DNA of 64,000 nucleotides, taken from the NCBI GenBank assembly GCA_963742415.1, contig CAVULX010000002.1, forward strand, positions 220,098 to 284,097, given 5' to 3'. How positions within the stretch are numbered: position 1 is the first letter of the stretch; each line of letters starts with the position of its first letter. Under the pieces are notes generated by a model that was given only the letters and a program-made list of their open reading frames with translations, ran no database searches and was not told the DNA's origin. Both the position numbers and the translations under genes were made by a program. Of the stretch, positions 24,693 to 44,320 are shown piece after piece. The stretch is from an uncultured Parachlamydiaceae bacterium. GTDB lineage: Bacteria > Chlamydiota > Chlamydiia > Chlamydiales > Parachlamydiaceae.

Positions 24693-24860
24693 TCAGGACA
24701 TATCTTAGGAATTGGTTTTGTAACTACAGCTATTCAAAATGGCGTTCCAGAGCATCTCATTATGAATTAGTCAGGTCACAAAAAAAGCGATACAATTAAG
24801 AAATACATCCGCCTCACGAACAAGTGGAAAGACAACGCGACTTCAAGGATAGGCTTATGA
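24693..24860 (+). pseudogene. C-terminal remnant of a Cre-like tyrosine recombinase
   Basis: Manual translation SGHILGIGFVTTAIQNGVPEHLIMN*SGHKKSDTIKKYIRLTNKWKDNATSRIGL* (degenerate HxLR box, GH, catalytic Y in KYIR, internal stop). Confidence 0.7.
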
Positions 24861-25918
24861 ATAGTGTTAATCATATTGAGAAAGATAGCCATCCTTCGAT
24901 CAAAATCGGAAATGTCTCTCTTTTCATCCCCAATGAAATCCTATTGCAAATTTTTAAAGATATGGATTGGTCCAAGCGACTGAATGTTTCCCTTGCCTGC
25001 AAACTGTGGCGAATCCTGGCGTTAGATCTATGCAAAAGCCCCATACGAAAATTTTATGGGCGCTTACCGCCTTATATCGGCTCCTCTTCTCATCAGACGA
25101 AACAAACAGAAGAAGTTTTCAATTATTTTAAAGATTTATTCAAACTCAATCATTCTCTATTAGAATTAATGCCTCTTCCTAAAAAATGTCGGGATGTAGT
25201 GGTGAAATCATCTGGTCAAATCTCTGCTGCAGCCTACAACAAAAACGAAGAAGAGGGATACTTGAGAATTCGTAAAGTTTTAAATGATAATAGTATAAAA
25301 ACAAGTAAACATCCCTTACATGGAATTTTTACTGGACAATTGGTAATTACGGATCGTAAGGTTTGCTGCAGTATTACAAAGAGTAAATCATTTTTTAAAC
25401 CCTTTGAGCATGGAATTTTTTATTATGAGGTGGAGACAAAATTTTGCTATAAATTAGCAGGCCGCTGGAAAAATACGGCGAAGAATAAGCGAACCATTAG
25501 TATTCTTACTGCGGGAAAAGGAACACTGATTTCTAGTCGGGGCGATGGAAGAATTCTGATCTATAAAGATTTAAACAGCGGCGGGTTCGCTCGTCCCTTC
25601 ATCATTTCATCAAATTTTAAACGCGTTGATTTGATTTCTTCCAGCGGCAGTTACTTAGCTGTGGCCCGATCAAGCAAGTTATCCCGATCAAGCAAGTTAT
25701 ATAGAACTGAATCTAAAACAAAATTGCTAAGAAAAAGGATCGTGGAAATTTGGAATATTGAAAAAAAATCCCTCGTTTATTCATCCCCATTAAAAATAAA
25801 ACCGCAGGCACTTTATTTGAAAATAATGAAAGAAGAAGCTATTTTTGCTGTGTCTTTAAAAAAGAATCGCACCTTCTTTCTCAGTTCTTCTGAAGAGACC
25901 AATTCTAATCAATGCTAA
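24857..25918 (+). CDS. F-box domain protein with beta-rich C-terminus; candidate eukaryote-like effector
   Basis: IPNEILLQIFKDMDWSKRLNVSLACKLWRILA fits the F-box consensus. The ATG overlaps the recombinase-remnant stop (ATGA). Confidence 0.75.
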   Translation: MNSVNHIEKDSHPSIKIGNVSLFIPNEILLQIFKDMDWSKRLNVSLACKLWRILALDLCKSPIRKFYGRLPPYIGSSSHQTKQTEEVFNYFKDLFKLNHSLLELMPLPKKCRDVVVKSSGQISAAAYNKNEEEGYLRIRKVLNDNSIKTSKHPLHGIFTGQLVITDRKVCCSITKSKSFFKPFEHGIFYYEVETKFCYKLAGRWKNTAKNKRTISILTAGKGTLISSRGDGRILIYKDLNSGGFARPFIISSNFKRVDLISSSGSYLAVARSSKLSRSSKLYRTESKTKLLRKRIVEIWNIEKKSLVYSSPLKIKPQALYLKIMKEEAIFAVSLKKNRTFFLSSSEETNSNQC

Positions 25919-25945: not shown

Positions 25946-25981
25946 CCGGAGTCGAACCGACGACCTTCGCATTACGAATGC
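25946..25981 (-). repeat. att core, left: fragment of tRNA-Thr(CGT) 3' half
   Basis: CCGGAGTCGAACCGACGACCTTCGCATTACGAATGC, identical to 44285-44320. Reverse complement shows the anticodon arm GCA-TTCGTAA-TGC and T-loop GGTTCGACTCC. Confidence 0.9.
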
Positions 25982-26097
25982 GGCTCCTCCGGGCAATGTC
26001 AAGTCATCTCACAGTAGCTGACACGAGAGCAGGATAACTCATCTTTTCTTTAGAGTCTATCGTCATTTGATGTGATTTCGATTGGTTTATCGCCCCT

Positions 26098-26121
26098 ATT
26101 TGGTCCACCATTGGTCCGCGG
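26098..26121 (+). promoter_or_regulatory. Putative integrase arm-type sites (tandem TTGGTCC)
   Basis: ATTTGGTCCACCATTGGTCCGCGG matches 44171-44194 at 22/24 positions. Confidence 0.65.
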
Positions 26122-26269
26122 ATTATGCAATACCCTTTTTCATAAAATATGCCTATTTAGGTATATCAAAGACAAAGTTACTCAACTAACCAGTTGTAAG
26201 CCCCGGAAGTGTACTATGTATGTAGTCGGAGTAAAGATGAATGGAGATGCGTTTTAGCAAATGAGTTTG

Positions 26270-29200
26270 TTAGAAAGATACCCTTGGCCAAGGCTGTTCG
26301 GACGCAATATCTGGATGGCGTGGCTCATTGGTAATGCGTCCATGCTCATCTCGCAATTTCTCAATCTTATTCAGGCATGCCTCTGCTAGAACAGCTTGTG
26401 GTCCTTCTGCTGTCGATATTGCAAACAATTTTTTACGAAATTCCACCAACGGGACGCTAAACTGCTCAAACGCGCCGGGCCAATCAAGCGAAGGCCGTTG
26501 GCCTATTGCCAGCTTTTCGATCGCCCTACTAAGCCGCTCATCGTAAGGCTGGTTAGCAACGGCAAGGCTGTGGATAAGTGCTAAAACGGAAGGCATATCG
26601 GCTATGTCTATAAGAGCATTCTCAAGAATTCTCTTCGGCCCTCCGTTAGCCATCTTTTCATAGCGCTGAAATATTTTATCACGTAGCGCCGGAAATTTTA
26701 GTGTTAGGTTAGCGAGTTGTTCCGACAACAACCAACTCTCTTTTCTACCGCGCTCACCCTGCACTTTATCTTCAAAAATCAAATCAAAAACGGTCCAGGC
26801 CGCTTCTTCCGTTTCCAGACTTATCATAGCATCAAGCCAATCACGCTCTTGCATCATTTCCGGATTACGCTCTGCTAATGCTTTAAGCACCTGTAATGCT
26901 TCGGCATGCGGGCTATGTCCCAGCGCTATTAGCAATCGACGGAAATGGTAGGAATAGCAGTATTTATTCGGCAATAAATCGAGCAGCTCAAGAACTGCTA
27001 AAGGACGATTGGAGAAGGCAAATAATTCTATCCATCCCATTACTTCACCTTGCCTATCTTCAAGTCGCCACGGCTCCTTTTTTCCCAGCTCTAATAACTC
27101 ATGGAATCCGGCAAGCAGCATATCGACTGAGAGAACTTCACCCGCTATTGCCACAGTAGTGAATAGCTCCAGCTTAACGCTGTATGGTTGCGGCAATTTA
27201 AACAGCTCGGCTATTTCTTGATTTTTGCTTCCAAAGGGCATGCTTAAGCCGATTTTCGCCAACTTAAGAGCATGTTGTTGCAAAGCCGATGCGCTATCAG
27301 GCTTACATAAGGTTCTCACCACTTCAAAGATGGTCTCGGAAAATTCGCATGTCGGTAGAGCGTTGCGCATATCTTCAAGGGAGAGGCGGCGAGTTTTCAC
27401 ATTGGAAAAATCATGCCATCCGAAGAATCGCTTATCTTTGCTGGATGGGTGATTGCGATTCCAAATTTCCAGAAGAACACATGCCGCATCTATGCCAAAG
27501 GGTATATCTGGCAAATATTCTTTCATCAATAATACCACGCTATCATCGCCGATAGCAGCAAATGCTCTGCTATATAGAAGCGTATAGCATATGTGTGCAC
27601 GAGAATCGCTGCGCCTGTTTGTTGTCTTTATTTCCTCAAGTTCTCGAGAACGTCCTGTAAAGTCGGCCTCCAATAATCTGTGCAAATCGGAAACAAATTG
27701 AGATTGTCCTAGGCGTCCTATGGCTTGGGCAACATCGACAAATTGATGTCGGTTTGTATCAGGCGCTGTAAGCATGATTTGCACCCAGTGCTTTATCACA
27801 ACAACGAATTGTTTTTTGACATCGGTACTTACTGTAAATGGCTTCTTTTCTTGTTCCCTACCATAACATACTACAAGTTCGGCCATCATTTTAATACGAT
27901 GCGGCTTGTCGGTGTTCGCTCGTTCAAGCAATGCGATAAAGAAGCTGGTTTGACGTGAACAGGCAATCGCATTCTTCAAACGATGATATTCTTGTCGCGC
28001 AGGTTCGGATAATTGCTTACCCTTTACCAGATACTCGTCAGTGAGTGTAAAAAGAGTATCCATCATTTTGCCAACCGTTATTGGACCTACAATGCTATAA
28101 GCAGCGCTTGCTATATTTTCAGGGGTTGCTTTATTAAGCGCTGCGTCAGCGATAGGTCCATCATCTAGAGAAGCCGTATTTTTCAGCCACTCATGGGCTC
28201 TCAATGGTAGCTCTAAACCACTGGCAATTCTGTGGATTATGCCCGCTGTTACAGCTTCTGGATAAACCTTAAAAGCATTGTTAATGGCTACACGCTCGTG
28301 ATTGCCTTTAATTGGAAAATCCGGAGATTGAATCAGCTGCGTAATATGCTCAGCAGCATTCATTTCCACTAGCTGACCTTCCGTTAAATACCGAATAATC
28401 TTTATTACATCGGTTTCGCGGGTTATTAATGTCTGTCGCATAGCCTTAAGATGGGCATTTAGCACCGGATCAAGTATCTTTTCAGGATAACCTTTTCGAG
28501 CTATGCATTCCCATACTTCATCCGAAGCGGTTCGTAAAATATCAGCAACATGACGATCTGCTCGACGGAATTGGAGTGATTGCAAAATTTTTACAATGAC
28601 AGTCGGACTCTTATCGTTCTTCGCGACACCAGCAGCAAGTTCCATTCCATCAAAACCACTGCGATATCCAATTTCTGCGACGACATCCCCACGTATTTCT
28701 TCTGGTAATGTTGCCAGTTGTTTTGCCACATCTGGTCCTAGCACGGAAGGCCGAAAGCGTTGCGCCGCTTGGAGGGCTCTTAAATAGACTTGGTTATCAG
28801 GACACGAAATTAGCGGCCATACAAATTCAGCAAACTCAGGGCGGCCTGTTGAAATCATAAACTGCACGGCACGATCTACCTTGTCCAATACATGCCAACG
28901 TTTCGCAAAATTTACGACCTTTTCACTTATATGTGACCATACTTCTGGCTTGGAGCGATAAATCATTTTAGCCGCAAGCATCGGATCAATGCTAAGTGTA
29001 TCGAGAACTGCCACCGCAACCGCTTTTGCTCCCTCGACATTTTTAGATAAACGTTCACAGGCAAATAAGGCTGATTCTTCCCAAGCCGACCAATTAAGCA
29101 CATCAGTATTAAGCATTCTTCGAGCTTCGGTGTTTCCTTGTGCAGCATCTGTCATCAAACGCTCAACTTCAAAAGACGCATACCACTCCTGAAATTGTTG

Positions 29201-30664
29201 GTGTTGGAATGAGACACTATCAGCGCCCCGAACAAGGGAATGTGTATTAACTAGAACATCTAAAACGATAGGGGGCTGGAAGGGCGTAAGAATTTGCTTA
29301 TGCGCTTGAAGGGTGATACATACATCACTTATTGCCCGCCATGCATTTTCTTCCGAAAGTGTAGTAGTCGCGGCCCGGTTTGCCTCGACTGCTAAACCGA
29401 TAAGTATTTGCTTATGACAACCTAAAAGCTCAGTACGGAGAATCTCGGCCTTTTCTGGTGCACTCTCATGCTGGGTAACGAAATTACTCAACAATGCTTC
29501 CTTGGTTTTGGGAGAGGTAGCTCCGGGTATGGTTGCAAGCATTGCAGTAAGATAGAGCGGGATGGAAACTAACTCGCGCACACCTGGCGTTCGCCAAGCT
29601 TGATCTACAAGCGCTTCGCCCTCCTTACCACGAATTTTGCGGGCAAGTTCTAATTGCTGTTCATCAGAAAGCGGTTCAATTTCGATGATAGCGCCGGGGA
29701 TAGGTATTGCCTGTCGCCGCGTGCCGATAACAATGCCTAATTGTGTAAATTCCCGCCTTAGTGTTTTCAGGTCATTCAACGCGCGTTTTCTAGCATCGGG
29801 ATTTAATTCATTCCAGCCATCGAGCAATAGTACTAAACGACCATGGTAAGCTACTTGCATAAAGTGCTGAGGCTGGAAAGTGTTAAAGGCGTTGCGACGG
29901 GCAAGAAACTCAAAAAAACTTTCCTGCCGATCAGACCATTCACCGAGTGGCACGAATGTGGCGATTTGATCACCATTAATAATGCTACTAGCCAGTTGTA
30001 TAAGCGTAGTAGTTTTACCCGTTCCTGGAGGTGATATAAAGCAAACTCCCTCGGCCGCACTGACTGCTTTTGCTACACCATCAAGCGTAACATTGATTTT
30101 TTGGGCATTGGTTAAAAGCTTGATATCTAACGAAATAACATGCGAAGGCCATTCCCGGGCATTCTGAAATGCAGAAATATCATTGGCTGCTGCTTTCTGC
30201 ATACGTGCTACAATGCTTTCGATATCGTCTTCCACTGGCAATCTAAGATTGCTTAAAAATTCCTTGTCAGCTTCATCAAGCTGCATCACAGTGACATGAC
30301 GTGCCGCGTTAGAAGTTGCCATCGCTTTGAATGCACGTGCCACAGCATCCTGTTTCCATGTATTAAGCAGCTCAACCGGAAACCTACTTTCATCTTTATC
30401 GATTTTATCTGCACAAATGGCGCAAAGCCAGATACCGTTTGAGATGTTTTTCCGAGTTTCTGAAGCAAGACTGGGGTCGTAACGTGGCCCTCCTGGGGCA
30501 GCTGCTGTAATATGCGCTGCCTTACCAATATTAACAGCTTTTTCCTCGTCTAATGATGGGCCAGAAGTCGAAAGCATGCAGTCAGGATTTGAGCAAAGAT
30601 GCCCTGCGCGACTTTCAAGAATTCGTTTTATCTTTGCTGTAAAATTATCACGATTGTCACGCAT
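26270..30664 (-). CDS. HNH-like nuclease fused to NACHT/STAND NTPase with long helical C-terminus
   Basis: RAGHLCSNPDC..GKAAHITAAAPGGPRYD..NGIWLCAICADKID; Walker A SPPGTGKTT; Walker B LLLDGWNE; IPLYL; FQHQQFQEWYA. Confidence 0.85.
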   Translation of the reverse strand: MRDNRDNFTAKIKRILESRAGHLCSNPDCMLSTSGPSLDEEKAVNIGKAAHITAAAPGGPRYDPSLASETRKNISNGIWLCAICADKIDKDESRFPVELLNTWKQDAVARAFKAMATSNAARHVTVMQLDEADKEFLSNLRLPVEDDIESIVARMQKAAANDISAFQNAREWPSHVISLDIKLLTNAQKINVTLDGVAKAVSAAEGVCFISPPGTGKTTTLIQLASSIINGDQIATFVPLGEWSDRQESFFEFLARRNAFNTFQPQHFMQVAYHGRLVLLLDGWNELNPDARKRALNDLKTLRREFTQLGIVIGTRRQAIPIPGAIIEIEPLSDEQQLELARKIRGKEGEALVDQAWRTPGVRELVSIPLYLTAMLATIPGATSPKTKEALLSNFVTQHESAPEKAEILRTELLGCHKQILIGLAVEANRAATTTLSEENAWRAISDVCITLQAHKQILTPFQPPIVLDVLVNTHSLVRGADSVSFQHQQFQEWYASFEVERLMTDAAQGNTEARRMLNTDVLNWSAWEESALFACERLSKNVEGAKAVAVAVLDTLSIDPMLAAKMIYRSKPEVWSHISEKVVNFAKRWHVLDKVDRAVQFMISTGRPEFAEFVWPLISCPDNQVYLRALQAAQRFRPSVLGPDVAKQLATLPEEIRGDVVAEIGYRSGFDGMELAAGVAKNDKSPTVIVKILQSLQFRRADRHVADILRTASDEVWECIARKGYPEKILDPVLNAHLKAMRQTLITRETDVIKIIRYLTEGQLVEMNAAEHITQLIQSPDFPIKGNHERVAINNAFKVYPEAVTAGIIHRIASGLELPLRAHEWLKNTASLDDGPIADAALNKATPENIASAAYSIVGPITVGKMMDTLFTLTDEYLVKGKQLSEPARQEYHRLKNAIACSRQTSFFIALLERANTDKPHRIKMMAELVVCYGREQEKKPFTVSTDVKKQFVVVIKHWVQIMLTAPDTNRHQFVDVAQAIGRLGQSQFVSDLHRLLEADFTGRSRELEEIKTTNRRSDSRAHICYTLLYSRAFAAIGDDSVVLLMKEYLPDIPFGIDAACVLLEIWNRNHPSSKDKRFFGWHDFSNVKTRRLSLEDMRNALPTCEFSETIFEVVRTLCKPDSASALQQHALKLAKIGLSMPFGSKNQEIAELFKLPQPYSVKLELFTTVAIAGEVLSVDMLLAGFHELLELGKKEPWRLEDRQGEVMGWIELFAFSNRPLAVLELLDLLPNKYCYSYHFRRLLIALGHSPHAEALQVLKALAERNPEMMQERDWLDAMISLETEEAAWTVFDLIFEDKVQGERGRKESWLLSEQLANLTLKFPALRDKIFQRYEKMANGGPKRILENALIDIADMPSVLALIHSLAVANQPYDERLSRAIEKLAIGQRPSLDWPGAFEQFSVPLVEFRKKLFAISTAEGPQAVLAEACLNKIEKLRDEHGRITNEPRHPDIASEQPWPRVSF

Positions 30665-30930
30665 AAGGTATTTCTAGCCGATTATATAGTTTATTATCGA
30701 AGTAACAGTATTCTAAGACAAAAGAAAGTTGTCTCGCCGATTTGATTCAAACCGCGACATCATAACCACGATGTACTTGATCTGGGCAACTTCATGTCAT
30801 TTTAGAGTGATTGACACGAAAATAGGATACCCCATTTTTTCTTTAGAGTCTACCGTGGGTTGATGGCATTTCGATCAGTTTGGTATCTTTATTGAGCCGG
30901 ACATCAATTTTATTGTTAGAGTTTTTCCTG

Positions 30931-30959
30931 TTGCATAAATATGCTCATTTAGGCATAAT
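30931..30959 (+). promoter_or_regulatory. higBA promoter with overlapping palindromic operator
   Basis: TTGCAT-17 bp-CATAAT; inverted repeat TATGC-N8-GCATA at 30940-30957. Confidence 0.55.
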
Positions 30960-30985
30960 AAGATTAGAAAGATAGAGGACATCTA

Positions 30986-31342
30986 ATGAAACGACTTTTC
31001 TGGATTGGATCGAGCCGCGAAGACCTCAAGTTATTTCCTGATGAAGTTCAAGATGAAATGGGACATGGCTTATATCTTGCGCAAATGGGTGATCGGCATA
31101 ACCATGCGAAGACTCTTAGTGGGTTAGGCAATGCCAAAGTGATTGAGCTTCGAGAAAACGACAGATCGGGAACTTATCGAGTGATTTATACAGTTGAAAT
31201 GACGGAATTCATTTTTGTACTGCATGCCTTTCAGAAAAAATCGAAGAGCGGCATCGCAACGCCTAAGCAAGAGATCGATTTGGTTAAGCGTCGTTTAAAA
31301 GAAGCTGACGCCCTTTATAAAGAATTAAAAGGAGAAAAGTAG
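30986..31342 (+). CDS. higB: RelE/HigB-family toxin (Gp49-like)
   Basis: WIGSSREDLKLFP, TYRVIY, VLHAFQKKS. Confidence 0.9.
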   Translation: MKRLFWIGSSREDLKLFPDEVQDEMGHGLYLAQMGDRHNHAKTLSGLGNAKVIELRENDRSGTYRVIYTVEMTEFIFVLHAFQKKSKSGIATPKQEIDLVKRRLKEADALYKELKGEK

Positions 31343-31344
31343 TT

Positions 31345-31707
31345 ATGAAAAAAAAGATCGTATACGAAGAAAGCTCCGGAAATGTATTTGCTGATTTAGG
31401 TATTGAAAATCCTGAAGAAGCTTTAGCAAAATCCGAGCTAGCTCGCCAAATTGCTAAGCTTATTAAGAAGAAAAAACTCACTCAAAAACGAGCTGCTGAA
31501 ATTTTAGGTATTGATCAACCAAAAATTTCTGCTTTGATTCGAGGAAGATTAAGAAGTTTTTCTTTAGAGCGCCTTATTCGTTTTCTAAATGAATTAGGTC
31601 AAGATGTTAGCATCATGATTAGCCCTGCAAAATCACAGTCAGAGCGGGGTAGCACATGGATTGGAGAATCCCATTCAAATACACGAATAGCTGCTTTGGG
31701 AAGATAA
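31345..31707 (+). CDS. higA: HigA-family XRE antitoxin
   Basis: SSGNVFADLG, LTQKRAAEILGIDQPKISAL, FSLERL. Confidence 0.9.
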   Translation: MKKKIVYEESSGNVFADLGIENPEEALAKSELARQIAKLIKKKKLTQKRAAEILGIDQPKISALIRGRLRSFSLERLIRFLNELGQDVSIMISPAKSQSERGSTWIGESHSNTRIAALGR

Positions 31708-31719
31708 TAAGGAAATAAA

Positions 31720-32178
31720 ATGACATCGGAAGTTTTGGAAAAAGAGTTAACCGATAAAGTTAAGTATGTTAAAACAGCCTACGCAAAAAGTTTTGTTGGT
31801 AGCTTTGTTGTTGTAATGAGTGGGGGATTCATCTCGACAATGGTTAATGAGTACTATCCATTAACTGCGACTACTATCGATCTACTACAAGCGTTTAGCG
31901 TTGTTCCAGGATCGGTAGCTTTGTTCGGAGTGCAGGGCTGGAATATTCAAACATGGTGTGGAACGACCCCAGCTGAAATATTAAATATAAAATTATTTCG
32001 CTTTTTTTCAATCATTGGTTTGCTTTTTGCTGTTGTAGCATTTTCGCTACATTCAGCGGTAAAGGAGTTTCCTGAAACTAACCAAGACATCATTTCTTAT
32101 CGCATAGAATCTGAAAACATTCAAAAAAGTCATAATGCTTTCAGAGAAAAATTGAATTCAATGACGTTATTCCAATGA
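31720..32178 (+). CDS. Hypothetical membrane protein
   Basis: About three hydrophobic segments; AAGGA RBS; 12 bp after higA. Confidence 0.6.
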   Translation: MTSEVLEKELTDKVKYVKTAYAKSFVGSFVVVMSGGFISTMVNEYYPLTATTIDLLQAFSVVPGSVALFGVQGWNIQTWCGTTPAEILNIKLFRFFSIIGLLFAVVAFSLHSAVKEFPETNQDIISYRIESENIQKSHNAFREKLNSMTLFQ

Positions 32179-32265
32179 CAACCCAGGGATTTTAGAATTT
32201 TTATTAACAAATATTGCGTGGGCATATTATTAATAGGATTTTGAGACATCACTGATTTGATATTT

Positions 32266-33126
32266 TCATTTTTGTGGGCTATCTTCAAAATCTCTTCTCA
32301 TAATCTCATGCAGTGTTTTACCTTCATCATTCTTCCAGTCTATCCATCCATTTGCTCTACGTCCTAGAACAACTCCAGCAGCCTGCGAAGGCGATGGAAA
32401 TAGATAGTCGGTCAGAAATATGAGTTGATCACCTTGTTGCTCAAGAATCCCCATGGCTTTTAGTTGTTCTCTGGCACTTTTTAAGGTAGATCCCGCACTG
32501 TCAGTGGTTGTTATACAAGCATGAGACCCTTTAAATACAACGAATCCATCCGCAACCTTCTCTCCTTTAGCATTAGCTTTCCCACTTTTACAACATACAT
32601 GACGTTGCTTCAATTCAGTTGTAAGCCTTTCAAAAATAGGAAAATCAAGCGTTGATAATAGCAGAGAGATTGTTTCAAACATCTCTAAGAGATCGGCTCT
32701 AACGGACTCGGAAACGAACGGCTCTGAAGGACTCAATCGATTTGTAAGACGTCCCTGACCTATTTGCTCGATCTCATTACAACAAAACCATTCCAAAAAC
32801 CGAATTTGACACTTAGTCAATTCATCTGTTTTGGATACTATCACAATCGCCGTATTCCATTCCTTGTCGCTGTTATGATGCTGTTTTAAACGATCCAAGC
32901 AATCCTCTGATTCTCCAACATAGACTGGGGTTCTGGCATCATCAGAATCACCAAAAAGAAAATAAATACCTGAACGCGAGAGTTCTGGACGCGTATACGC
33001 CTCCTTTAGATCTGAACGAGGGACATATATGGCAATAGGAATGCGAGAAGTAACCTGAGCAATCTTTAGTCCTCGAGGTTTGCCTGTAGGGAGAAAGAGC
33101 TGAATAGTTTTAGGTGTAGGCTTCAT
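32266..33126 (-). CDS. GIY-YIG nuclease with DUF4357-like C-terminal domain
   Basis: SGIYFLFG..VYVGESE..RLKQH; FPSPSQAAGVVLGRRANGWIDWK. Confidence 0.85.
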   Translation of the reverse strand: MKPTPKTIQLFLPTGKPRGLKIAQVTSRIPIAIYVPRSDLKEAYTRPELSRSGIYFLFGDSDDARTPVYVGESEDCLDRLKQHHNSDKEWNTAIVIVSKTDELTKCQIRFLEWFCCNEIEQIGQGRLTNRLSPSEPFVSESVRADLLEMFETISLLLSTLDFPIFERLTTELKQRHVCCKSGKANAKGEKVADGFVVFKGSHACITTTDSAGSTLKSAREQLKAMGILEQQGDQLIFLTDYLFPSPSQAAGVVLGRRANGWIDWKNDEGKTLHEIMRRDFEDSPQK

Positions 33127-33850
33127 GTGCTCCTTTTTTGGACAAAACCAGCTCTATGAAGTTCTCCGTTAAAGAGCAGTTCTTACAGGTTGGAAATTGA
33201 TCTGGTGGGATGGAAGACCGATTAATTCGATCTGCCTTTTTCAGCAATTTTTGAATGAGTTGATCGTCGCGCTCTACCACAACAATTTTCGGATTAAAAC
33301 GCAACTCCAAGCCATCGCAATGGCAGTAGTGATGCATACCTAAAGATGATTCTGTAAGAGGTTCCATGTAAATAAGTGCTAATTTTGAAACCTGTCCAAG
33401 GCCTAGATGTTCCGCAATGAGAGCATAACTATTGAGTTGCGCTTGATAGATCGGAACCATGTTATCCTGATTGTCTGTCCATTTGGCTGTTTTATAGTCA
33501 ACAATAGCAAGTGAGCCATCAATAAATTCAAAGATGCCATCAGCTTCGCCTGTTAATAAAATTCCTGTTATTGGATCTTGGAATTGAAATCGTGAGTGGT
33601 GAGGTGGAGAAATATAATGTCTTATTGCTCCAAGACAGTTAAGAAATGCAGGTGCTTGAGAGTTTATGTCCATAAATGCATGAACAGAACGTTTCGTAAA
33701 AGAGTCAATCGATGCAAAAATGCCTGGAAAAATTGAGTAAGGAAAACGATTTCCCATTTTCATCTTAATCCAAAAACACCTTTCGCAACATTCTGGAAGT
33801 GCCAATTCTCCGAGTGTTTTTCCTGATATTCTCATATAATAATTATTCAC
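33110..33850 (-). CDS. PD-(D/E)XK RecB/Cas4-like nuclease
   Basis: LTGEADG..IVDYKT, QLNSYA; CERC and CKNC cysteine pairs. Confidence 0.8.
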   Translation of the reverse strand: MNNYYMRISGKTLGELALPECCERCFWIKMKMGNRFPYSIFPGIFASIDSFTKRSVHAFMDINSQAPAFLNCLGAIRHYISPPHHSRFQFQDPITGILLTGEADGIFEFIDGSLAIVDYKTAKWTDNQDNMVPIYQAQLNSYALIAEHLGLGQVSKLALIYMEPLTESSLGMHHYCHCDGLELRFNPKIVVVERDDQLIQKLLKKADRINRSSIPPDQFPTCKNCSLTENFIELVLSKKGAHEAYT

Positions 33851-33987
33851 TTCAGATATTAAAATATATAATTAACATTACAAATTATTTCAAATAATTG
33901 TTCTATTTGCAATAAACGCATAATTATACTACCATTGTTCTGTTTTAATCAACGTTTCTTGTTGATTTGCAAAGACATGGATGTCGA

Positions 33988-36648
33988 ATGAATATTTGTA
34001 AGACCGAAGAAAATATTAGGAAATTAGCAGATAATTTTAATGAAACAACTTTTATCTATGATCTGCTCTTAGCCTACGGAAAACCAAAAGCCGCAATAAC
34101 GCGCTTGCAAAAATCTTACAATTTATCGAAAAGAAATAATGAAGTTATTTGGAAAAAAAATCTTTGTTTTAGAAGAGTTAGCGAAAACGATCTATATAGT
34201 GAAATCGATAATTTAAATAACGATTCGAATATTCTAAAACACTCTCCGCGTTTTATTATTGTCACTGATTATAAAAAAATTCTTGCTACCGATACAAAAA
34301 CAAAAGATACTTTAGACATCTTCTTCAACGAACTCGGTGATAATTTTGATTTTTTTCTCCCTTGGGCCGGCTTCGAGAAAACAAGATCCAAGAGTGAAAG
34401 CTTAGCTGATATTAGGGCCGCAGAACAAATGGCCAAATTATATGATGAGATTAAAAAAGATAATCCATGGGCTGAGAAAAAAGCGCTTCATTCCCTAAAC
34501 GTTTTTCTTTCTCGTCTATTATTTTGCTTCTTCGCAGAAGATACAACCATTTTTGAGAAAGGATTATTTAGTAGCTCAATCGCTTCTCATACTCTAGAAG
34601 ATGGCAGTGATCTTAATAGTTATCTTGACAGGTTATTTGAGGCTTTAAATTCCGAAAACAAATCTCGATTCCCTAAGTATCTTCAAATATTTCCATATGT
34701 TAATGGAGGTTTATTTGCAGAAAAACACCCAGTGCCCAGATTTACTCGCCGTTCGCGCAAAATTCTTCTTGAATGTGGGGGGCTGAATTGGTCATCGATT
34801 AATCCCGACATTTTTGGTTCCATGATTCAGGCCGTTGTTGATTCAAATCAACGTGGGGAAATGGGAATGCACTATACCTCAGTTCCAAATATCATGAAAG
34901 TCATAGAACCACTGTTTTTAGGTGAACTTTATGACGAATTTGAAAAATCGAAAGGCAACCAAAAAAAATTAGAAAAAATATTGGTCCGATTATCTCAGAT
35001 AAAAATTTTCGACCCCGCTTGCGGTTCAGGGAACTTTCTAATTGTCGCCTACAAGGAATTACGAAGCCTCGAAATGAAAATTATCAAGCACCTTCAAGGA
35101 TTTACCACTCGTCTTCCACTTTCGAATATTAAACTTTCTCAATTCTATGGAATCGAAATTGACGACTTTGCTCATGAGGTGGCCATGCTTTCATTATGGC
35201 TGATTGACCACCAAATGAACCAATCATTTAAAATTGCTTTTGATCGAACAAGGCCTTCTTTGCCACTCAAACAAGGCGGCCATATTATTTGCGGAAACGC
35301 CACTCGATTAAATTGGGACGAAGTTTGTCCTAAAGACCATACTTCGGAAGTATATCTAATCGGAAATCCTCCTTATAGGGGGTCATCTCTCCAATCTGAA
35401 GAACAGAAAGATGATATGGCTTTAGCATGTTCTGGCATCAAGAATTATAAAAATCTTGATTACATTACATGCTGGTTCTTTAAGGGAGCAAAATATCTAG
35501 ATAAATGTCCTAAATCAAAATTGGCTTTTGTGACAACGAGTTCGATTTGCCAAGGAGAACAAGTGGCTCTCTTATGGCCTCCCATTTTTAGTAACCACTT
35601 AGAAATTGGATTTGCGCATCAGCCTTTTAAATGGCTTAACAACGCAAGAAGAAACGCTGGTGTAATTTGTTCTATAATAGGAATTAGACATTACTCAAAT
35701 CAAACTAAACTAATCTATAAGAATGATCTCGTTCAAATTGTTGACAATATAAACCCGTACCTGATGCCTGGGAATAATACGATAATTAAAAAAAGAAATA
35801 ATCCAATTTCTTCATTACCGCAAATGAGCTACGGAAATAAAGCTGTTGATAACGGTAGTCTTATTCTTTCAGAATCTGAAAGAATTGATCTTGTCACCAG
35901 AAATCCTACTTCAAAAAAAATTATAAAGAAGCTAGCCGGGTCGGCCGAGTTTATTAGAGGAACAGATAGATGGTGTTTGTGGATTACCGATGACGACCTC
36001 TCTATTGCCTGTGGAATTCCTGAGATAAAAAGACGACTCGCAAACGTGAGAGATTTTCGTCTCAAAAGCCGCAAAAAAGCAACCATCGAAATATCAAATA
36101 CACCACATCAATTCGGCGAAATTCGGTATAATGGTTCAAGCTCTATTATCATTCCAAGAGTTTCCTCCGATCGCCGAGAATTTATTCCTATTGGGTTCCT
36201 AGATAAGAACACTATTATTTCAGACTCTGCTCAGGCAATATATAATGCCGAACCATATGTTTTTGGAGTAATTTCTTCCAAAATTCATCTTGCTTGGGTT
36301 AAAGCTACGGCAGGAAAATTAAAAAATGATTATAGATATTCGTCAGCATTAAGTTACAACACTTTCCCATTACCACCTCTCTCTGAAAAGCAAAAAGAAA
36401 TTATTAACATTCACGTTTTCAATATTCTTTCTGAAAGAGAAAAACATCCCGAAAAAACAATCGCCCAACTCTATGACCCAGCTAAAATGCCTAAAGGGCT
36501 AAAGGAAGCACACCGAGGCCTCGATATAGCCATTGAACGGTGTTATAGATCAAAACCATTTGAGAGCGATGGAGAACGATTAGAACATCTTTTTAAACTC
36601 TATGAAGAAATGACTCAAAACGAAAAAAAGAGGAAAAATCATGCCTAA
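33988..36648 (+). CDS. MmeI/YeeA(DnmA)-like N6-adenine DNA methyltransferase
   Basis: FLSRLLFCFFAED, YVNGGLF, GMHYTS, FDPACGSGNF, GNPPY, LYDPAKMP..L.EAH. Confidence 0.9.
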   Translation: MNICKTEENIRKLADNFNETTFIYDLLLAYGKPKAAITRLQKSYNLSKRNNEVIWKKNLCFRRVSENDLYSEIDNLNNDSNILKHSPRFIIVTDYKKILATDTKTKDTLDIFFNELGDNFDFFLPWAGFEKTRSKSESLADIRAAEQMAKLYDEIKKDNPWAEKKALHSLNVFLSRLLFCFFAEDTTIFEKGLFSSSIASHTLEDGSDLNSYLDRLFEALNSENKSRFPKYLQIFPYVNGGLFAEKHPVPRFTRRSRKILLECGGLNWSSINPDIFGSMIQAVVDSNQRGEMGMHYTSVPNIMKVIEPLFLGELYDEFEKSKGNQKKLEKILVRLSQIKIFDPACGSGNFLIVAYKELRSLEMKIIKHLQGFTTRLPLSNIKLSQFYGIEIDDFAHEVAMLSLWLIDHQMNQSFKIAFDRTRPSLPLKQGGHIICGNATRLNWDEVCPKDHTSEVYLIGNPPYRGSSLQSEEQKDDMALACSGIKNYKNLDYITCWFFKGAKYLDKCPKSKLAFVTTSSICQGEQVALLWPPIFSNHLEIGFAHQPFKWLNNARRNAGVICSIIGIRHYSNQTKLIYKNDLVQIVDNINPYLMPGNNTIIKKRNNPISSLPQMSYGNKAVDNGSLILSESERIDLVTRNPTSKKIIKKLAGSAEFIRGTDRWCLWITDDDLSIACGIPEIKRRLANVRDFRLKSRKKATIEISNTPHQFGEIRYNGSSSIIIPRVSSDRREFIPIGFLDKNTIISDSAQAIYNAEPYVFGVISSKIHLAWVKATAGKLKNDYRYSSALSYNTFPLPPLSEKQKEIINIHVFNILSEREKHPEKTIAQLYDPAKMPKGLKEAHRGLDIAIERCYRSKPFESDGERLEHLFKLYEEMTQNEKKRKNHA

Positions 36649-38571
36649 TATTGTCGATGTTTCTTATGCCCAAACAGGACAAAGCACAAAAACAAATTCG
36701 ATGGGCATGCGAGAAATGCAAGAAAGAGCGTATTTAGCCCGAGATGCTCAATATCTTCTCCTTAAATCCCCTCCAGCATCTGGAAAATCCCGCGCGCTCA
36801 TGTACATTGCACTCGACAAACTCCATCGTCAAGGACTCAAAAAGGTTATAGTTGCCGTTCCTGAGAAAGCAATCGGCGCTTCTTTTAGTAACACCGACTT
36901 AATATCTCAAGGCTTCTTTGCTAATTGGGAAACAAATCCTGAATATAACCTATGCATTCCTGGTGGTGAAGGGAATAAGGTACAAGCTTTTCTCAGGTTT
37001 TTAAATAACAATGAACGTACTCTTATCTGCACCCATGCTACTTTACGTTTTGCTTTTGAAGCATCCACTACAGAGAATTTTGACAATACTATTCTTGCAA
37101 TTGATGAATTTCACCATGTTTCAGCTGATGGAGATAGCCGTTTAGGTGAGCTCTTAAGAGCAATCATGGAAAAATCAAATGCTCATATTATCGCCATGAC
37201 CGGTTCATATTTCCGCGGAGATACAACTCCCATTCTTTCGCCAGAAGATGAAGCAAAGTTCGCAAAAGTGACCTATAACTATTATGAACAGTTAAATGGC
37301 TATACTCATTTAAAATCTTTAGGTATTGGATATCATTTCTATCAAGGGCGCTACACTTCCGCAATTGATGAAATTCTTGGACACCGACAAAAAAACAATC
37401 CTTCATATTCCTAATGTACAGTCCGGAGAATCCACAAAAGATAAGCATAATGAAGTGGACACTATTTTAGACAAAATAGGAACCGTTATACATCAAGATC
37501 AGGAAACTGGGGTCATCCATGTTACTCGTCACAACGATGGTAAAACGATTTTAAAAGTAGCCGATCTTGTTGATGACCGACCTCGTCGAGCGAAATAGAA
37601 TTGTCAACTTATCTACGGCAAATTAAGAGTCCTGATGATCTGGATATTATTATTGCTTTAGGTATGGCAAAAGAAGGTTTTGATTGGCCTTTCTGCGAAC
37701 ATTCATTAACAGTTGGCTATCGAGGATCTCTTACAGAAATTATTCAGATAATTGGTCGCTGCACTAGGGATAGCAGTAATAAAACTCATGCTCAATTTAC
37801 AAATCTTATTGCTCAGCCTGATGCAGCTGATGATCAAGTAAAGTTATCTGTCAACAATATGCTAAAAGCAATTACTTGTTCTCTTTTAATGGAACAGGTA
37901 TTGGCGCCTAACTTCAAATTTAAAACTAAACAATCAGAAGAAGATCAAGCGCAACCTGGTGAAATCAAAATTCGGGGATTTAAAGAACCAAGTTCAAAAC
38001 GCGTGAAGGATATTATTGAATCCGATTTGAATGATCTCAAAGCCAACATTTTACAGAGATGACACAATGATTAAAGCTCTACCAGGAAATCTCGATCCAG
38101 AGGTAATAAATAAAGTATTGATTCCTAAAATCATTAAGATAAAATACCCTGAGCTTACTGATCACGAAATTGAAGAAGTTCGTCAACATATTGTTGTTGA
38201 CTCTGTCGTTAAAAACGGAGAAATTGAAGTCACTGGGGACAAGCGATTTATTCGGATGGCTGGCCAATTTGTAAATATTGATGACTTGCATATTGATCTT
38301 ATTGACAGAATCAATCCTTTCCAAAAAGCCTTTGAAATTTTATCAAAATCAGTCACTTCGCAGGTCTTAAAAGCCATCCAAGAAACAATTGAAGCTAATC
38401 GTATCCAAATGACAGAAGAGGAAGCATTTCTTCTTTTGCCCAAAAATCAATCTATTTGTCAGGACCAATAATGGTCGAGAACCTAACTTAAATTCTCTAG
38501 ATGCTTTAGAACGCCGAATGGCAGAGGCTTTAGCCTACTTGCGACATCAACATCGTTCTCAAGGATTATAA
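36641..38571 (+). pseudogene. YeeB-like SF2 helicase, about four frameshifts (or sequencing errors)
   Basis: PPASGKS, DEFHH, MTGSYFRGD, MAKEGFDWP, QIIGR across ORFs 36641, 37326, 37601 and 38031; ends RMAEALAYLR..GL*. Confidence 0.8.
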
Positions 38572-38572
38572 T

Positions 38573-39730
38573 ATGAATCAAGAGGAACTACTAAAATTGA
38601 TTCTAGAGGATGAATTTGGGCTGCTTAAAGTTAAACAAAAAACTACAAAAAACATAAATGCGAATGAGCGCCTTCATTTAAATTTTCAAGAAATTAATGA
38701 TTTTTTTCGCGAACATGGCCATTCCCCACAGCCAAATTCCCAAGATATGTCGGAATTCAAGCTGTACGAACGGTTAGCAACAATAAATTCAAACCCTGAT
38801 CATATCCAACAGTTAAAGGAGTATGACGACTTCAAGCTTTTAGAAAATGCTCATTCAATTAACTCAATTGAAGACATAATCTTAGCAGATGACTTTGGTC
38901 TGTTGAAAGAAGACCCTGAGAGCATTTTTCAACTTCGCCATGTTCCGAAAGAATTAACCACACCCGATTACATAGCGCAACGCGTGCCTTGCCTAGATTT
39001 CGATAAATTTGAACTGTTGTTCTGTCAATGTCAAGCTGACTTAGCTTCTGGAAAAAGAAAATTGCTCTCCTTTGCCATGGAACAGCAAATTAGTACTGGT
39101 GATTTCTATGTTCTTAGAGGAGTGCTTACATATGTCGCCAAAATAGGCGAGAATGAAAATATAAGTGGTAGGCCTAATCCTCGATTGCGTTGTATATTTG
39201 AAAATGGAACAGAGTCTGACATGCTTTTACGTTCTCTAGCGCGGGCGTTGTACAAAGATGGACGCCGAATTACTGAACACGCAGACAGGCTTCTTGATGG
39301 GTTGAGTAATAATAAGACCACTGACGATAAAGAGACTGGATATATATACGTTTTGAAATCACTAAGTAGTAACCCTGAGATTAAAAGTCTTATCAACCTT
39401 TATAAGATTGGTTTTTCACGAATTCGCGTTGAAGAACGCATTAAGAATGCGAAAAATGATCCCACCTACCTTCTTGCACCTGTGCAAAGAATTGCCGTAT
39501 ACGAATGTTATAATTTAAATCCTCAAAAATTTGAGCTCTTGCTTCATACTTTTTTTGGTCAAGTTTGTCTTAACTTAGATGTACATGACAGCAATGGACA
39601 TAGATATGTGCCAAGAGAGTGGTTTACAGCGCCTTTTGAAGTGATTGAACAAGCAATATCTCTCTTGCTAACCAAAGAAATTGTCAAATACAAATATGAT
39701 CCACTTTTACAGATGATTGTAAAAAAATAA
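38573..39730 (+). CDS. YeeC-like GIY-YIG (T5orf172) nuclease
   Basis: TGYIYVLKS..LYKIGFS..VEERI, FENGTES, PREWF. Confidence 0.85.
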   Translation: MNQEELLKLILEDEFGLLKVKQKTTKNINANERLHLNFQEINDFFREHGHSPQPNSQDMSEFKLYERLATINSNPDHIQQLKEYDDFKLLENAHSINSIEDIILADDFGLLKEDPESIFQLRHVPKELTTPDYIAQRVPCLDFDKFELLFCQCQADLASGKRKLLSFAMEQQISTGDFYVLRGVLTYVAKIGENENISGRPNPRLRCIFENGTESDMLLRSLARALYKDGRRITEHADRLLDGLSNNKTTDDKETGYIYVLKSLSSNPEIKSLINLYKIGFSRIRVEERIKNAKNDPTYLLAPVQRIAVYECYNLNPQKFELLLHTFFGQVCLNLDVHDSNGHRYVPREWFTAPFEVIEQAISLLLTKEIVKYKYDPLLQMIVKK

Positions 39731-39784
39731 AGTCCGAGGATCAACAATTCAGAAGATTTTAGCTATGGTAATTCCGGTAAAATT

Positions 39785-40243
39785 TCAGTAAACAAATGGT
39801 AAAGTTTTCTCTTTCAAAACATTCATTTTGAGACTTTCATCAATATCGTATTCCTTCGTGTGAAATTTAAGATTCCCAACCTCTGATTGAATTTTTTGAT
39901 TCATTTGGAAAACAATATTGACCAGATCCTTAACACTGATCTCATCAAAGGATCTTTCTTTCAGTTCTTCTAGAGCTTTGCTTAAGATGATAGAAAAAGA
40001 CTCAAGGCGATTACGTTTAGATAAGCTGTATTCGGCGATGATTGATTCAAATTCAAAGTATCTAAGATTGGCTATCTCATTTTTTAGCTCATCGTTCCAT
40101 TTGATCAAGGTGGGTTTAGAAATTTCCAGCTCTTTAGATATTTTATCATAAGAAAGACCCTTGGCTCGCAATTCAATAAATCGCTTCTTTTCGTTTTGAG
40201 TTTTCATATCTTTCTCCGCGAATGCATTTGTTTCACGTTTCAT
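39785..40243 (-). CDS. Small N-terminal HTH DNA-binding protein
   Basis: FIELRAKGLSYDKISKELEISKPTLIKW. Confidence 0.65.
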   Translation of the reverse strand: MKRETNAFAEKDMKTQNEKKRFIELRAKGLSYDKISKELEISKPTLIKWNDELKNEIANLRYFEFESIIAEYSLSKRNRLESFSIILSKALEELKERSFDEISVKDLVNIVFQMNQKIQSEVGNLKFHTKEYDIDESLKMNVLKEKTLPFVY

Positions 40244-40273
40244 TTGCTACAGGGGTGAAACATGAAACACTTT

Positions 40274-41983: not shown

Positions 41984-42189
41984 TTTTTACAAGCCTCTTG
42001 TGATTTGGCCCATTCCATGAAAGCCCTCTCATCAATGAGAACTCGTCCATTTGCTTTGACAACAACTCCTTCAAAATTTTTTCTTTTTGCGTTTGCTACC
42101 AGATGCCTTAAACCTCCTATCGTCGGCCAAATATGAAAATCATTCCATTTGGTTAGGGGAATAAGTTCGGATTTCAGTTTATCGTTCAT
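41980..42189 (-). CDS. Small excisionase/AlpA-like DNA-binding protein
   Basis: 69 aa; GRVLIDERAFMEW; AAGGAG RBS; overlaps the primase start. Confidence 0.6.
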   Translation of the reverse strand: MNDKLKSELIPLTKWNDFHIWPTIGGLRHLVANAKRKNFEGVVVKANGRVLIDERAFMEWAKSQEACKK

Positions 42190-42347
42190 AACAGCTCCTT
42201 ATGTTGCGTTAATGTTAATTCACGCACATAATTAGAGCTGGACCGCATATTATTTAGTTACACTCCAGTCAAAAAAAAATGTAGCTTCCAACAATAAGAC
42301 CATTTCTACCTTCTTCAAGCATATGTGGAGTTCTTTTAACCCGAAGA

Positions 42348-42971
42348 TCATTGCAACAGGGGCGCAAGTTTTTGTTTTATTACAAGTTTTTCTTCGTCAG
42401 TCGTCTTCTTGTTATATAGGGAAATATCTGGCTTTAACCATTTTCTTAGAGTGCGTTCACCTGGTAGATCGTCAGCAATACCTGATTCCTGGGCTATTTC
42501 TATAACAATCTCCAGACAAGCACGAGGGCAGATAAATAATATGGCTTTTGCTAAAGTACGAAATTGATCGATCCTGATTTTCTCTTCTTCTTTTCTATAG
42601 GATTCTTTAGATCTTTTTTTACTGACTTTGGCAATTAATTCTACCAAATCAGGATCCAATTGAATGAGAGGATAATTATTGGCCCATTCCATCCACTCCT
42701 GACAAGATAATCTATCAGGTCCTCCATCCATCACGAGTTTTAGAGAACGAGTTATTATTGCATTTGCTACCAGTTGAGAAACGTAACTACCAAATCGAGT
42801 AGATGTGATCTGATCAAACGATCTGTAATCATCAGCAACACTGGGAGCATACTTCAAAAATACGCAAGTTGCTTCTGAAGAAGTCCACCATCCTTTTTCA
42901 ATCCAAATCCGATATAGTTGTATACGTGTCTTGAAAGGGATGCTAAAATTGATTTCGCAGTTATCTTTCAT
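42348..42971 (-). CDS. Hypothetical protein, possible C-terminal HTH
   Basis: Start reassigned to MKDNCEI, overlapping the integrase stop; PGERTLRKW. Confidence 0.55.
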   Translation of the reverse strand: MKDNCEINFSIPFKTRIQLYRIWIEKGWWTSSEATCVFLKYAPSVADDYRSFDQITSTRFGSYVSQLVANAIITRSLKLVMDGGPDRLSCQEWMEWANNYPLIQLDPDLVELIAKVSKKRSKESYRKEEEKIRIDQFRTLAKAILFICPRACLEIVIEIAQESGIADDLPGERTLRKWLKPDISLYNKKTTDEEKLVIKQKLAPLLQ

Positions 42972-44217: not shown

Positions 44218-44275
44218 AAAATGGAGGGCCAAATGAATCGCTTTCTGGCATACCTCTCAACAATTAAAAATGAAT

Positions 44276-44320
44276 TGCCCAAAGCCGGAGTCGAACCGAC
44301 GACCTTCGCATTACGAATGC
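44276..44320 (-). repeat. att core, right: 3' half of tRNA-Thr(CGT), not a complete tRNA
   Basis: Reverse complement GCATTCGTAATGCGAAGGTCGTCGGTTCGACTCCGGCTTTGGGCA; no D-arm or 5' acceptor strand upstream. Confidence 0.88.

Follow-up and report, generated by a model that had tools for sequence, protein, structure and literature searches.

What kind of protein is encoded by a long stand-alone gene in an environmental chlamydia, how new is it, and how might it act? The gene lies at positions 26270..30664, on the minus strand, of a 64,000-nucleotide stretch of DNA (the window) from an uncultured Parachlamydiaceae bacterium (assembly GCA_963742415.1, contig CAVULX010000002.1, positions 220,098 to 284,097). 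It runs from ATG to stop (stop codon included) and encodes 1464 amino acids (aa; label P0001), in which an HNH nuclease domain, a NACHT module and a long C-terminal half are joined. In the present study, we propose that the product is probably an NLR-like immune nuclease (bacterial NACHT/STAND) made as one polypeptide, its gene being the end cargo of a decayed tRNA-Thr(CGT) island. Homology gives good support to the reading as an NLR-like HNH nuclease encoded by one gene, and by analogy with studied systems the protein would most likely be an oligomerisation-activated abortive-infection DNase. Judged by its relatives, it is a member of a widespread, computationally catalogued family and not a new kind of system. 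What is new here is the Parachlamydiaceae host, the location at the end of a tRNA-Thr island, and the family-wide lack of one Cap5 Mg-ligand histidine together with a DGWNE Walker B motif.

Domain architecture of the HNH-NACHT protein

The first-pass annotation of this DNA had described an uninterrupted reading frame of 1464 aa, and the frame and its translation, without internal stops, bear this out; the coordinates given then also stood, and the minus strand, left unmentioned at that time, is added here. All of the motifs named then (CSNPDC, AAHI, GGPRYD, NGIWLC..C and EPRHPD..PWP) are present in the translation, together with a Walker A GTGKT. The gene is a single copy in the host genome (2.69 Mb, 4 contigs, 84% complete). 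A DnaA encoded nearby shares 86% identity with that of a Parachlamydiaceae MAG; among the 80 loci found with it, the closest are labelled Parachlamydiaceae, Parachlamydia or Chlamydiae and most others Chlamydiota, with a few under Verrucomicrobia/Verrucomicrobiae, Aerophobetes or 'uncultured bacterium'. This DnaA speaks against Legionella, a host that the F-box-like gene had suggested. Conservation was followed in an alignment of 68 rows, comprising P0001, 45 of the 120 listed homologues and 22 of 80 loci, with L050 and L011 left out for frame breaks. Two AlphaFold2 models were built on this alignment, one of aa 1-540 (pLDDT 91.3, pTM 0.87) and one of aa 521-1464 (pLDDT 89.8, pTM 0.72). Of the 194 columns conserved at 90% or more in the 67 other sequences, the window copy follows the consensus in all but three (191 matches), the mismatches being I/L, T/P and M/L. 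The following domains were delimited:

30305..30664, minus strand: HNH (His-Me finger) nuclease domain, aa 1-120 (PADLOC, PDB sequence matches, VIA)
30080..30304, minus strand: helical linker, aa 121-195, the least conserved stretch of the N-terminal half
29120..30079, minus strand: NACHT module, aa 196-515, comprising nucleotide-binding domain (NBD), helical domain (HD) and winged-helix domain (WHD) (invariant columns, Foldseek, VIA)
26525..29119, minus strand: HEAT/ARM-like all-helical solenoid, aa 516-1380, presumed sensor or scaffold (AlphaFold2 model, without a Pfam family)
26273..26524, minus strand: NCAB2 (NACHT C-terminal alpha/beta 2) domain (PF22726 match, aa 1382-1460)

First, the N-terminal domain is a nuclease domain of the Cap5/SPARHA type, as judged both by sequence and by modelled fold. 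PADLOC matched this domain only, with PDC-M68A (1.1e-26), the CBASS endonuclease effector (1.5e-16) and SAVED-HNH models, and the PDB sequence matches obtained with phmmer were 9om4 and 8fm1. The model of aa 6-118 was superposed by VIA on the PsCap5 HNH domain (8fmf) with a Z of 14.5 and a root-mean-square deviation (rmsd) of 3.1 over 110 aligned residues at 29% identity, so that the earlier assignment to an HNH of the CBASS-effector type is confirmed and narrowed to Cap5. Nine positions of the domain (G47, H51, R61, R71, N76, C81, D89, W103 and K104) are invariant in 68/68 sequences. The Zn ligands are C24, C29, C81 and C84; positions 24 and 29 are cysteine in 63 of the 68 rows, the remainder being gaps, and at position 84 cysteine (42 rows) alternates with histidine (26 rows). 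A gap-free phmmer alignment to PsCap5 places H51 on His56, D89 on Asp95 and A85 on His91. H51 would then serve as the general base, and N76 is the structural Asn. A similar domain was also observed in P2-like phage 'lysogenic conversion' proteins, namely phage P2-EC46 ORF2 (L172:488-1594) and a protein of a Yersinia phage (L173:2693-3631), whose N-terminal ~105 aa are 46-50% identical to the HNH domain of the window. The linker that follows the domain contains two modelled helices (residues 131-139 and 148-167).

Second, the NACHT module claimed by the first-pass annotation is intact. The Walker A motif PPGTGKTT has the GxxxxGK[ST] form, with G214, G216 and K217 invariant in 68/68 sequences, as is the Walker B stretch D282-G-W-N285-E286. 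In the WHD, each position of the motif F486-Q-H488-Q-Q-F-Q-E-W494 is invariant or at least 90% conserved, H488 being among the positions conserved at 90% or more. The modelled aa 146-540 match NLRC4 (VIA Z 18.1, rmsd 5.2, 357 residues aligned, 17% identity; Foldseek E 6.7e-12), followed by NLRP3, NOD2 and NAIP5. Down to rank 41, all VIA rows other than those of Cap5 are NACHT NLRs, and the top fold matches are all animal; the Z values were 10.3 for Avs4 and ~10.5 for plant NLRs. It was also observed that the modelled module (aa 146-540) fits activated NLRC4 assemblies (rmsd 5.1-5.3) better than autoinhibited 4KXF (rmsd 7.6).

Third, the long C-terminal half divides into two parts. It had been described as an unrecognised sensor of ~900 aa; this did not hold for the last ~80 aa, including EPRHPD..PWP, which are NCAB2, and it stood for the solenoid, which is without a Pfam family. 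The NCAB2 match to PF22726 (E 8.2e-25, 87.5 bits against a cut-off of 27, profile positions 2-80 of 80) is the sole one in the host genome. In the model, this domain is a beta hairpin plus two helices that follow an otherwise all-helical C-terminal half. Four of its positions (A1427, L1431, H1450 and P1451) are invariant, and R1438, D1439, G1442, E1447, P1448, R1449, W1459 and P1460 are at least 90% conserved, so that the conserved tail reads E1447-P-R-H1450-P1451-D ... W1459-P1460. The solenoid of ~860 aa gave only generic HEAT/ARM matches (CAND1, RRP12, SF3B1, importins, INTS4). No specific fold was found for it, with Foldseek TM scores of 0.14-0.30 and a best VIA Z of 12.4 against a helical-repeat noise of ~13. 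In the ESM Atlas, the top solenoid score was 0.90, to an unnamed cluster, and HEAT + NCC-H proteins at 0.88 are a lead only; for NCAB2 the scores were at most 0.81, which is chance level. An NCBIfam profile search of the protein gave nothing significant. Taken as a whole, a single polypeptide with HNH, NACHT and a long C-terminal part in a defence-island setting, as first described, is supported by profiles, fold and context.

Proposed mechanism, trigger and nuclease chemistry

A mechanism is proposed by analogy with bNACHT25, bNACHT11, Cap5 and SPARHA. At rest, the protein would be a nucleotide-bound monomer, in which the WHD histidine H488 would keep the closed state. An infection cue would be perceived by the HEAT-like solenoid and the NCAB2 end domain. 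With nucleoside triphosphate (NTP) bound at Walker A (K217), the NACHT modules would then oligomerise and bring together the HNH domains (Cap5/SPARHA type) of their N-termini, which would form active sites as dimers of dimers. These sites might cut DNA without sequence specificity, so that the phage or mobile element would be stopped and the cell lost, i.e. abortive infection. Several precedents are available for the individual steps. In bNACHT25, which combines a PD-(D/E)XK DNase, NACHT and a helical C-terminus, the nuclease is needed for defence, and mutants at the NLRC4 H443 equivalent are toxic in a nuclease-dependent manner (10.1101/2022.07.19.500537, PMC12169576). bNACHT11 oligomerises once activator and ATP are bound (PMC11702601). 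For Cap5 and SPARHA, tetramerisation of HNH domains of this type forms the active site (PMC12141522, PMC12738770), and the SPARHA paper describes HNH domains of the same clade fused to NACHT STANDs and predicts oligomerisation for HNH-NACHT fusions (PMC12738770).

Several observations weigh against this reading, and they concern the profiles, the two catalytic sites, the sensor and the literature. First, the Pfam NACHT model PF05729 reached 21.5 bits (aa 212-344), which is below its cut-off of 26.7, and none of the 14 PADLOC matches at E<=1 was to a model named for NLR, bNACHT or Avs. The PF05729 cut-off was passed by 2 of the 15 relatives scanned (P0151 with 26.8 bits, P0264 with 29.1), and a six-frame search of the host genome with the same model gave no match. 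In other words, PF05729 sits at the edge of this family, and the NACHT assignment is therefore carried by fold and motifs. Second, the Walker B motif DGWNE fits the NACHT signature D[GAS]hDE, as given in section 6 of the Kibby et al. preprint (10.1101/2022.07.19.500537), at 4 of 5 positions, with the first acidic residue replaced by Asn family-wide; NTP hydrolysis may differ for this reason. Third, of the two Mg ligands expected from Cap5/SPARHA (His91 and Asp95), the family keeps one: D89 is invariant, and the His91 equivalent is alanine in the window copy (A85), while across the 68 sequences this position holds A 45 times, G 15 times, S 6 times and H twice. Nuclease chemistry may be altered or weak because this ligand is replaced. 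Fourth, the sensor is evenly conserved and nearly without indels, unlike SNaCT sensors, and thus direct phage-protein recognition is perhaps not the trigger logic. Finally, no experimental study of the HNH-NACHT-NCAB2 architecture was found in the literature searched, which held catalogues and mentions only, most subscription journals and the supplementary tables of the Kibby et al. preprint and paper lying outside the search. Neither the Mg-site nor the Walker B departure proves inactivity, and we infer the chemistry of both sites from sequence accordingly.

The altered metal site raises an alternative, in which the HNH domain is not a degradative DNase but a nickase, a DNA-binding module or an enzyme with an unusual metal, and the output is something other than bulk DNA degradation. 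The small residues at position 85 (A, G or S in 66/68) speak for it, as does the loss of the Cap5 bridge glutamate (Glu53; E50 in MllaSPARHA); at the equivalent position 48, V occurs 28 times among the 68 sequences, K 11 times and E 9 times. In addition, the SPARHA HNH already has an unusual Mn-only requirement (PMC12738770). For AcaSPARHA, loss of activity has been described for the equivalent double mutant, N71A/H80A (PMC12738770). The catalytic Mg of PsCap5, whose general base is His56, is bound by two residues of helix alpha-4, His91 and Asp95, along with three waters and a phosphate (PMC12141522); with just two protein ligands on this Mg, a water could therefore stand in for the histidine. 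The invariance of H51, N76, D89, R61, R71, W103 and K104 is hard to square with a dead domain, and the small-residue variant is kept in the P2-EC46 ORF2 HNH, which has the same small residue at the His91 equivalent. Weighing these points, we consider a non-degradative domain unlikely, and DNase activity, by analogy, the expected output of the immune nuclease proposed here.

The sensor raises the more serious alternative, which concerns the trigger. Mean column entropy was 1.70 in the HNH domain, 2.17 in the linker, 1.60 in the NBD and 1.55 in the HD/WHD; in the C-terminal half it was 1.52 for aa 516-720, 2.37 for aa 721-960, 2.02 for aa 961-1200, 2.24 for aa 1201-1380 and 1.75 for NCAB2. Thus, the first 200 aa of the solenoid are as conserved as the NACHT module, the gap fraction is 0.00-0.01 across the whole C-terminal half, and the C-terminal 944 aa hold 28-67% identity from Acidobacteriota to Chlamydiota. 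By comparison, the SNaCT sensors of clade 14 bNACHT proteins are 'highly variable' and 'rapidly evolving' (PMC11702601). As far as column conservation can tell, the evenness of this sensor speaks, if anything, against an arms-race direct receptor. The solenoid and NCAB2 tail might instead bind a conserved cellular component or a universal infection by-product, whose perturbation would release the NACHT module. The EPRHPD tail with its invariant H1450 and P1451 would suit such a role, and a passage of the Kibby preprint suggests that small C-terminal domains behind repeats 'may tether' the protein to an endogenous component (10.1101/2022.07.19.500537). A precedent is bNACHT25, which senses phage via host DnaJ (PMC12169576). 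A guard-type trigger is a serious alternative because of the even conservation and this tether proposal, and we hold it to be possible, with some doubt: no guarded partner was identified, the gene moves among very different phyla and the guarded component must therefore be near-universal, and the more variable stretches aa 721-960 and 1281-1400 (entropy 2.2-2.7) could be a surface for direct recognition.

Distribution of the family and the tRNA-Thr(CGT) island

The first-pass annotation had suggested that the sensor may define a new subfamily. This suggestion did not survive the searches, in which the architecture recurs in many proteins that are already named and catalogued. A word-indexed protein search gave 1740 proteins at E<=1e-3 (8000 candidates scored). 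The 120 matches listed share 43-70% identity with the query, in most cases along 97-100% of its length, and PF22726 is present in nearly all; where NCBI or UniRef gives a name, it is 'NACHT domain-containing NTPase' or 'NACHT C-terminal Alpha/Beta 2'. Relatives were also found in species-representative genomes, where they are encoded by 121 of 136 candidate stretches, and the phyla include Pseudomonadota, Acidobacteriota, Nitrospirota, Verrucomicrobiota, Thermodesulfobacteriota, Myxococcota, Gemmatimonadota, Bdellovibrionota and others. When the sensor half (aa 521-1464) was compared with 1.84 billion representatives, 1041 clusters (50% identity) were found at E<=1e-3, 704 at E<=1e-10 and 357 at E<=1e-30. 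In the alignments of the 150 listed, 70 reach back to query residue 12 or further, 26 begin within the HNH domain and 51 are collinear N-terminal truncations (147 in all), and more than 30 unaligned N-terminal residues were found in 3 (P0177, P0242, P0253). On these counts, the domain order is constant, exchange of the effector is very rare, and the same sensor is found well beyond the window. Effector swapping on a common chassis had been considered with 18 shorter relatives, which were scanned with PADLOC and 15 of them also with Pfam; most were without an HNH match, but BLAST showed them to be collinear N-terminal truncations, and the idea was rejected. HNH and NCAB had already been catalogued as domain types of bacterial NACHT proteins in section 6 of the Kibby preprint, whose legend on the tested proteins names only LRR, HEAT, REase, TIR, TM, NNH1 and NCH1 (10.1101/2022.07.19.500537).

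Within the host lineage, the gene is singular. No full-length relative was found in 72 other Parachlamydiaceae genomes, which gave two HNH-only matches and one weak NACHT, or in 400 other genomes sampled from the phylum (45 of which overlap the family set), which gave one HNH-only match. In a FastTree tree of 42 rows (the query, 31 loci and 10 top matches, L043 being excluded because of its frame break), the window copy falls together with a Rickettsiales metagenome-assembled genome (MAG) and unnamed metagenome proteins with a Shimodaira-Hasegawa-like support of 100; one group further out lie, among others, a Pseudobdellovibrionaceae and a Legionella MAG, and the tree overall is incongruent with taxonomy. 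Full-length copies occur on 8 plasmid records, one of them from Rhizobium etli CFN42, and on 0 phage records.

The surroundings of the gene point to mobility. The main features are listed below, with att denoting an attachment site and ORF an open reading frame:

24824-25918, plus strand: F-box-like protein (PF12937, E 2e-6), just outside the left att repeat
25946..25982, minus strand: att-like fragment, 37 nt identical to positions 28-64 of tRNA-Thr(CGT) (blastn and aragorn)
25988..26088, plus strand: copy 1 of a 101-nt direct repeat, 76% identical, that flanks the gene; homology reaches ~250 nt
30693..30721, minus strand: promoter-like site, 29-57 nt 5' of the ATG (consensus scan, 9/12 matches)
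30781..30881, plus strand: copy 2 of the 101-nt repeat, 5' of the gene, read as a degenerate older att flank
30986-31707, plus strand: Gp49/HigB-like toxin and HTH_37/HigA-like antitoxin
32266-33850, minus strand: PDC-S14/DUF4357 protein (PADLOC 2.3e-96), overlapping the start of a Cas4-like PD-(D/E)XK gene
33967-36648: MmeI-family type IIG restriction-modification gene (E 0)
36641-38471, plus strand: DEAD/ResIII-Helicase_C helicase in three ORFs (257, 153 and 146 aa), downstream of the type IIG gene
43030-43248 and 43350-43517, minus strand: tyrosine recombinase in two frame-broken pieces (PF00589 six-frame, E 1.1e-11 and 6.9e-6)
44276..44320, minus strand: att-like fragment, identical to the last 45 nt of tRNA-Thr(CGT) (blastn and aragorn)
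44577-46401, minus strand: DUF4276 (HEC-01B-like) and AAA_21 ATPase (AriA/AbiLi/HEC-01A-like), just outside the right att repeat

The att-like fragments at 25946-25981 and 44276-44320 share a 36-nt exact direct repeat and bound an 18,375-bp segment (25946-44320) of 39.3% G+C. The NACHT gene lies at one end of it, and the broken tyrosine recombinase lies at the other, just inside the right att fragment. The intact tRNA-Thr(CGT) is located ~76 kb before the window, at G000:C2:143452-143524 of the host genome, and an open 354-aa frame that matches integrases adjoins it (tRNA and frame, C2:143452-144878). We read this 18.4-kb segment as a decayed integrative island that targets tRNA-Thr(CGT). Further att copies at C2:157004-157040 and C2:160279-160312 hint at another element, or an array, located at the tRNA gene. 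Judging by the degenerate inner repeat, the NACHT module may have come in a separate tandem insertion. A simple insertion between conserved flanks had been considered and was rejected, since MoxR and Sua5 lie 35-162 kb apart in the 5 relatives with both on one contig.

The gene is richer in G+C than its neighbours, as first noticed (45.3% against 38.3% for the surrounding 22.7-48.8 kb region), yet it is no outlier genome-wide, the genome having 41.7% +/- 3.5 and the gene standing at the 91st percentile of 5347 equal-sized windows. The promoter-like site is weak evidence, because the scan gave 5 sites against 9.8 expected. Rfam searches of both gene flanks gave 0 matches at E<=1.

With such surroundings, the gene might serve the island, in a mobile-element conflict or as an addiction-like module, or be a recent passenger without a working trigger in an obligate intracellular host. 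Its position at the distal end of an att-bounded island with a broken integrase and a helicase in pieces, its occurrence as the sole full-length copy among the family and phylum genomes searched, and its grouping with a Rickettsiales MAG and unnamed metagenome proteins would all be expected from this view. We nevertheless judge it improbable, since the reading frame is intact amid decayed island genes and keeps 191/194 conserved columns, and its terminal branch (0.29) is not above the tree median (0.3).

The first-pass annotation had found no partner gene. In the window, the neighbours of the NACHT gene are the F-box-like gene, in convergent orientation, and the Gp49/HigB and HTH_37/HigA pair, in divergent orientation. 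Neighbours were surveyed at 71 of the 80 relatives' loci (9 partial matches dropped) with crude ORF calls within 4 kb and BLAST clusters, and no conserved partner gene was found across these 71 loci, in agreement with the earlier claim. The commonest neighbour, in 13/71, is a protein of ~1320 aa that is encoded upstream on the same strand and gives weak matches to Cap4 nuclease and AAA_16; an AbiEii-family gene was found in 7/71 (in L027 directly upstream of the ~1320-aa gene) and an integrase in 7/71. The ~1320-aa gene directly precedes HNH-NACHT in a distant subclade with ~33-35% identity to the query (L027:2983-7993 and 12 further loci), and the two may form a paired STAND arrangement. In the two closest named relatives (L001:3204-7730 and L003:1530-6119), a divergent ORF of 1508-1529 aa without a Pfam match adjoins. 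Neither the ~1320-aa Cap4/AAA_16 protein nor the 1508-aa ORF was found in the window's genome, which is 84% complete.

Several other genes around the NACHT gene deserve mention. The PDC-S14/DUF4357 protein and the Cas4-like gene are a candidate two-gene defence pair, the split helicase is probably a broken gene, and T5orf172 and Toprim/AAA_25 primase-like genes are also present. The F-box-like protein is likely a eukaryote-directed effector of an amoeba symbiont, and two ORFs of 482 and 130 aa without a family match precede its gene.

Relation to known systems and significance

The closest functional parallel is given by bNACHT25 and bNACHT32 (clade 6), which share with the present protein a single polypeptide, an N-terminal DNase effector, NACHT, a helical C-terminus and the WHD histidine equivalent to NLRC4 H443; a nuclease-dependent abortive outcome would be expected for both. 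They differ in that their effector is of the PD-(D/E)XK/Mrr type (PMC12169576) and their C-terminus is NCH1, whereas here the effector is HNH, a solenoid of ~860 aa and NCAB2 follow, the Walker B is DGWNE, and no NCH1 match was found among the Pfam matches at E<=1. CBASS Cap5 (SAVED-HNH; 8FMF, 9DIF) and SPARHA HNH-APAZ (9OM4) have the same HNH subtype (29% identity); the general-base His, structural Asn, Asp95 equivalent, Zn cysteines and N-terminal helix, which serves dimerisation in SPARHA (PMC12738770), are present here. In those systems, the domain is controlled by SAVED and a cyclic nucleotide or by an Argonaute, whereas here it stands under a fused NACHT sensor, with Ala at the His91 equivalent and the bridge Glu not conserved. 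The clade 14 proteins (bNACHT01/02/11) resemble the present one in the NACHT core, in Walker A-dependent defence and in oligomerisation with activator and ATP, which was observed for theirs (PMC11702601); they have a short hypervariable SNaCT without a recognisable effector, whereas a long conserved solenoid and HNH are found here. The animal NLRs NLRC4/NAIP, NOD2 and NLRP3 are the top structural matches for aa 146-540 and have the same tripartite layout, but they carry LRR sensors and CARD/PYD adaptor effectors, and sequence identity is 14-19%. Avs/AVAST proteins (e.g. Avs4, 8DGF) likewise combine effector, STAND NTPase and C-terminal sensor in one gene and occur in defence islands. Unlike in Avs, the NTPase is nearer to animal NACHT NLRs than to Avs4 (Z 18.1 against 10.3). 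The sensor also differs, being a conserved HEAT-like solenoid here, whereas that of Avs is of TPR type and binds terminase or portal.

Bacterial NLR-related proteins tie bacterial to animal innate immunity, and few clades have been tested so far. The present clade is an easy and informative target for new trigger logic, because it is large (>1000 clusters at 50%), is encoded by a single gene, models well and contains two well-understood modules. Its modestly interesting features are the altered Mg site and Walker B, the unusually conserved sensor, and the singular occurrence on a tRNA-Thr island in an environmental chlamydia. Tentatively, the HNH-NACHT-solenoid-NCAB2 proteins might form a distinct branch of bacterial NLR immunity, whose large conserved sensor, the EPRHPD tail included, would read no variable phage protein but guard a near-universal component of the cell or sense a universal by-product of infection, with the Mg site and DGWNE as tuned features, a proposal we would put forward only with reserve. 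If true, it would account for a gene that works after transfer among Acidobacteriota, Nitrospirota, Pseudomonadota and an obligate intracellular chlamydia. With its nearest named relative in a Rickettsiales MAG, the gene on the tRNA-Thr island of this amoeba-associated chlamydia is a case of defence-gene traffic among intracellular bacteria.

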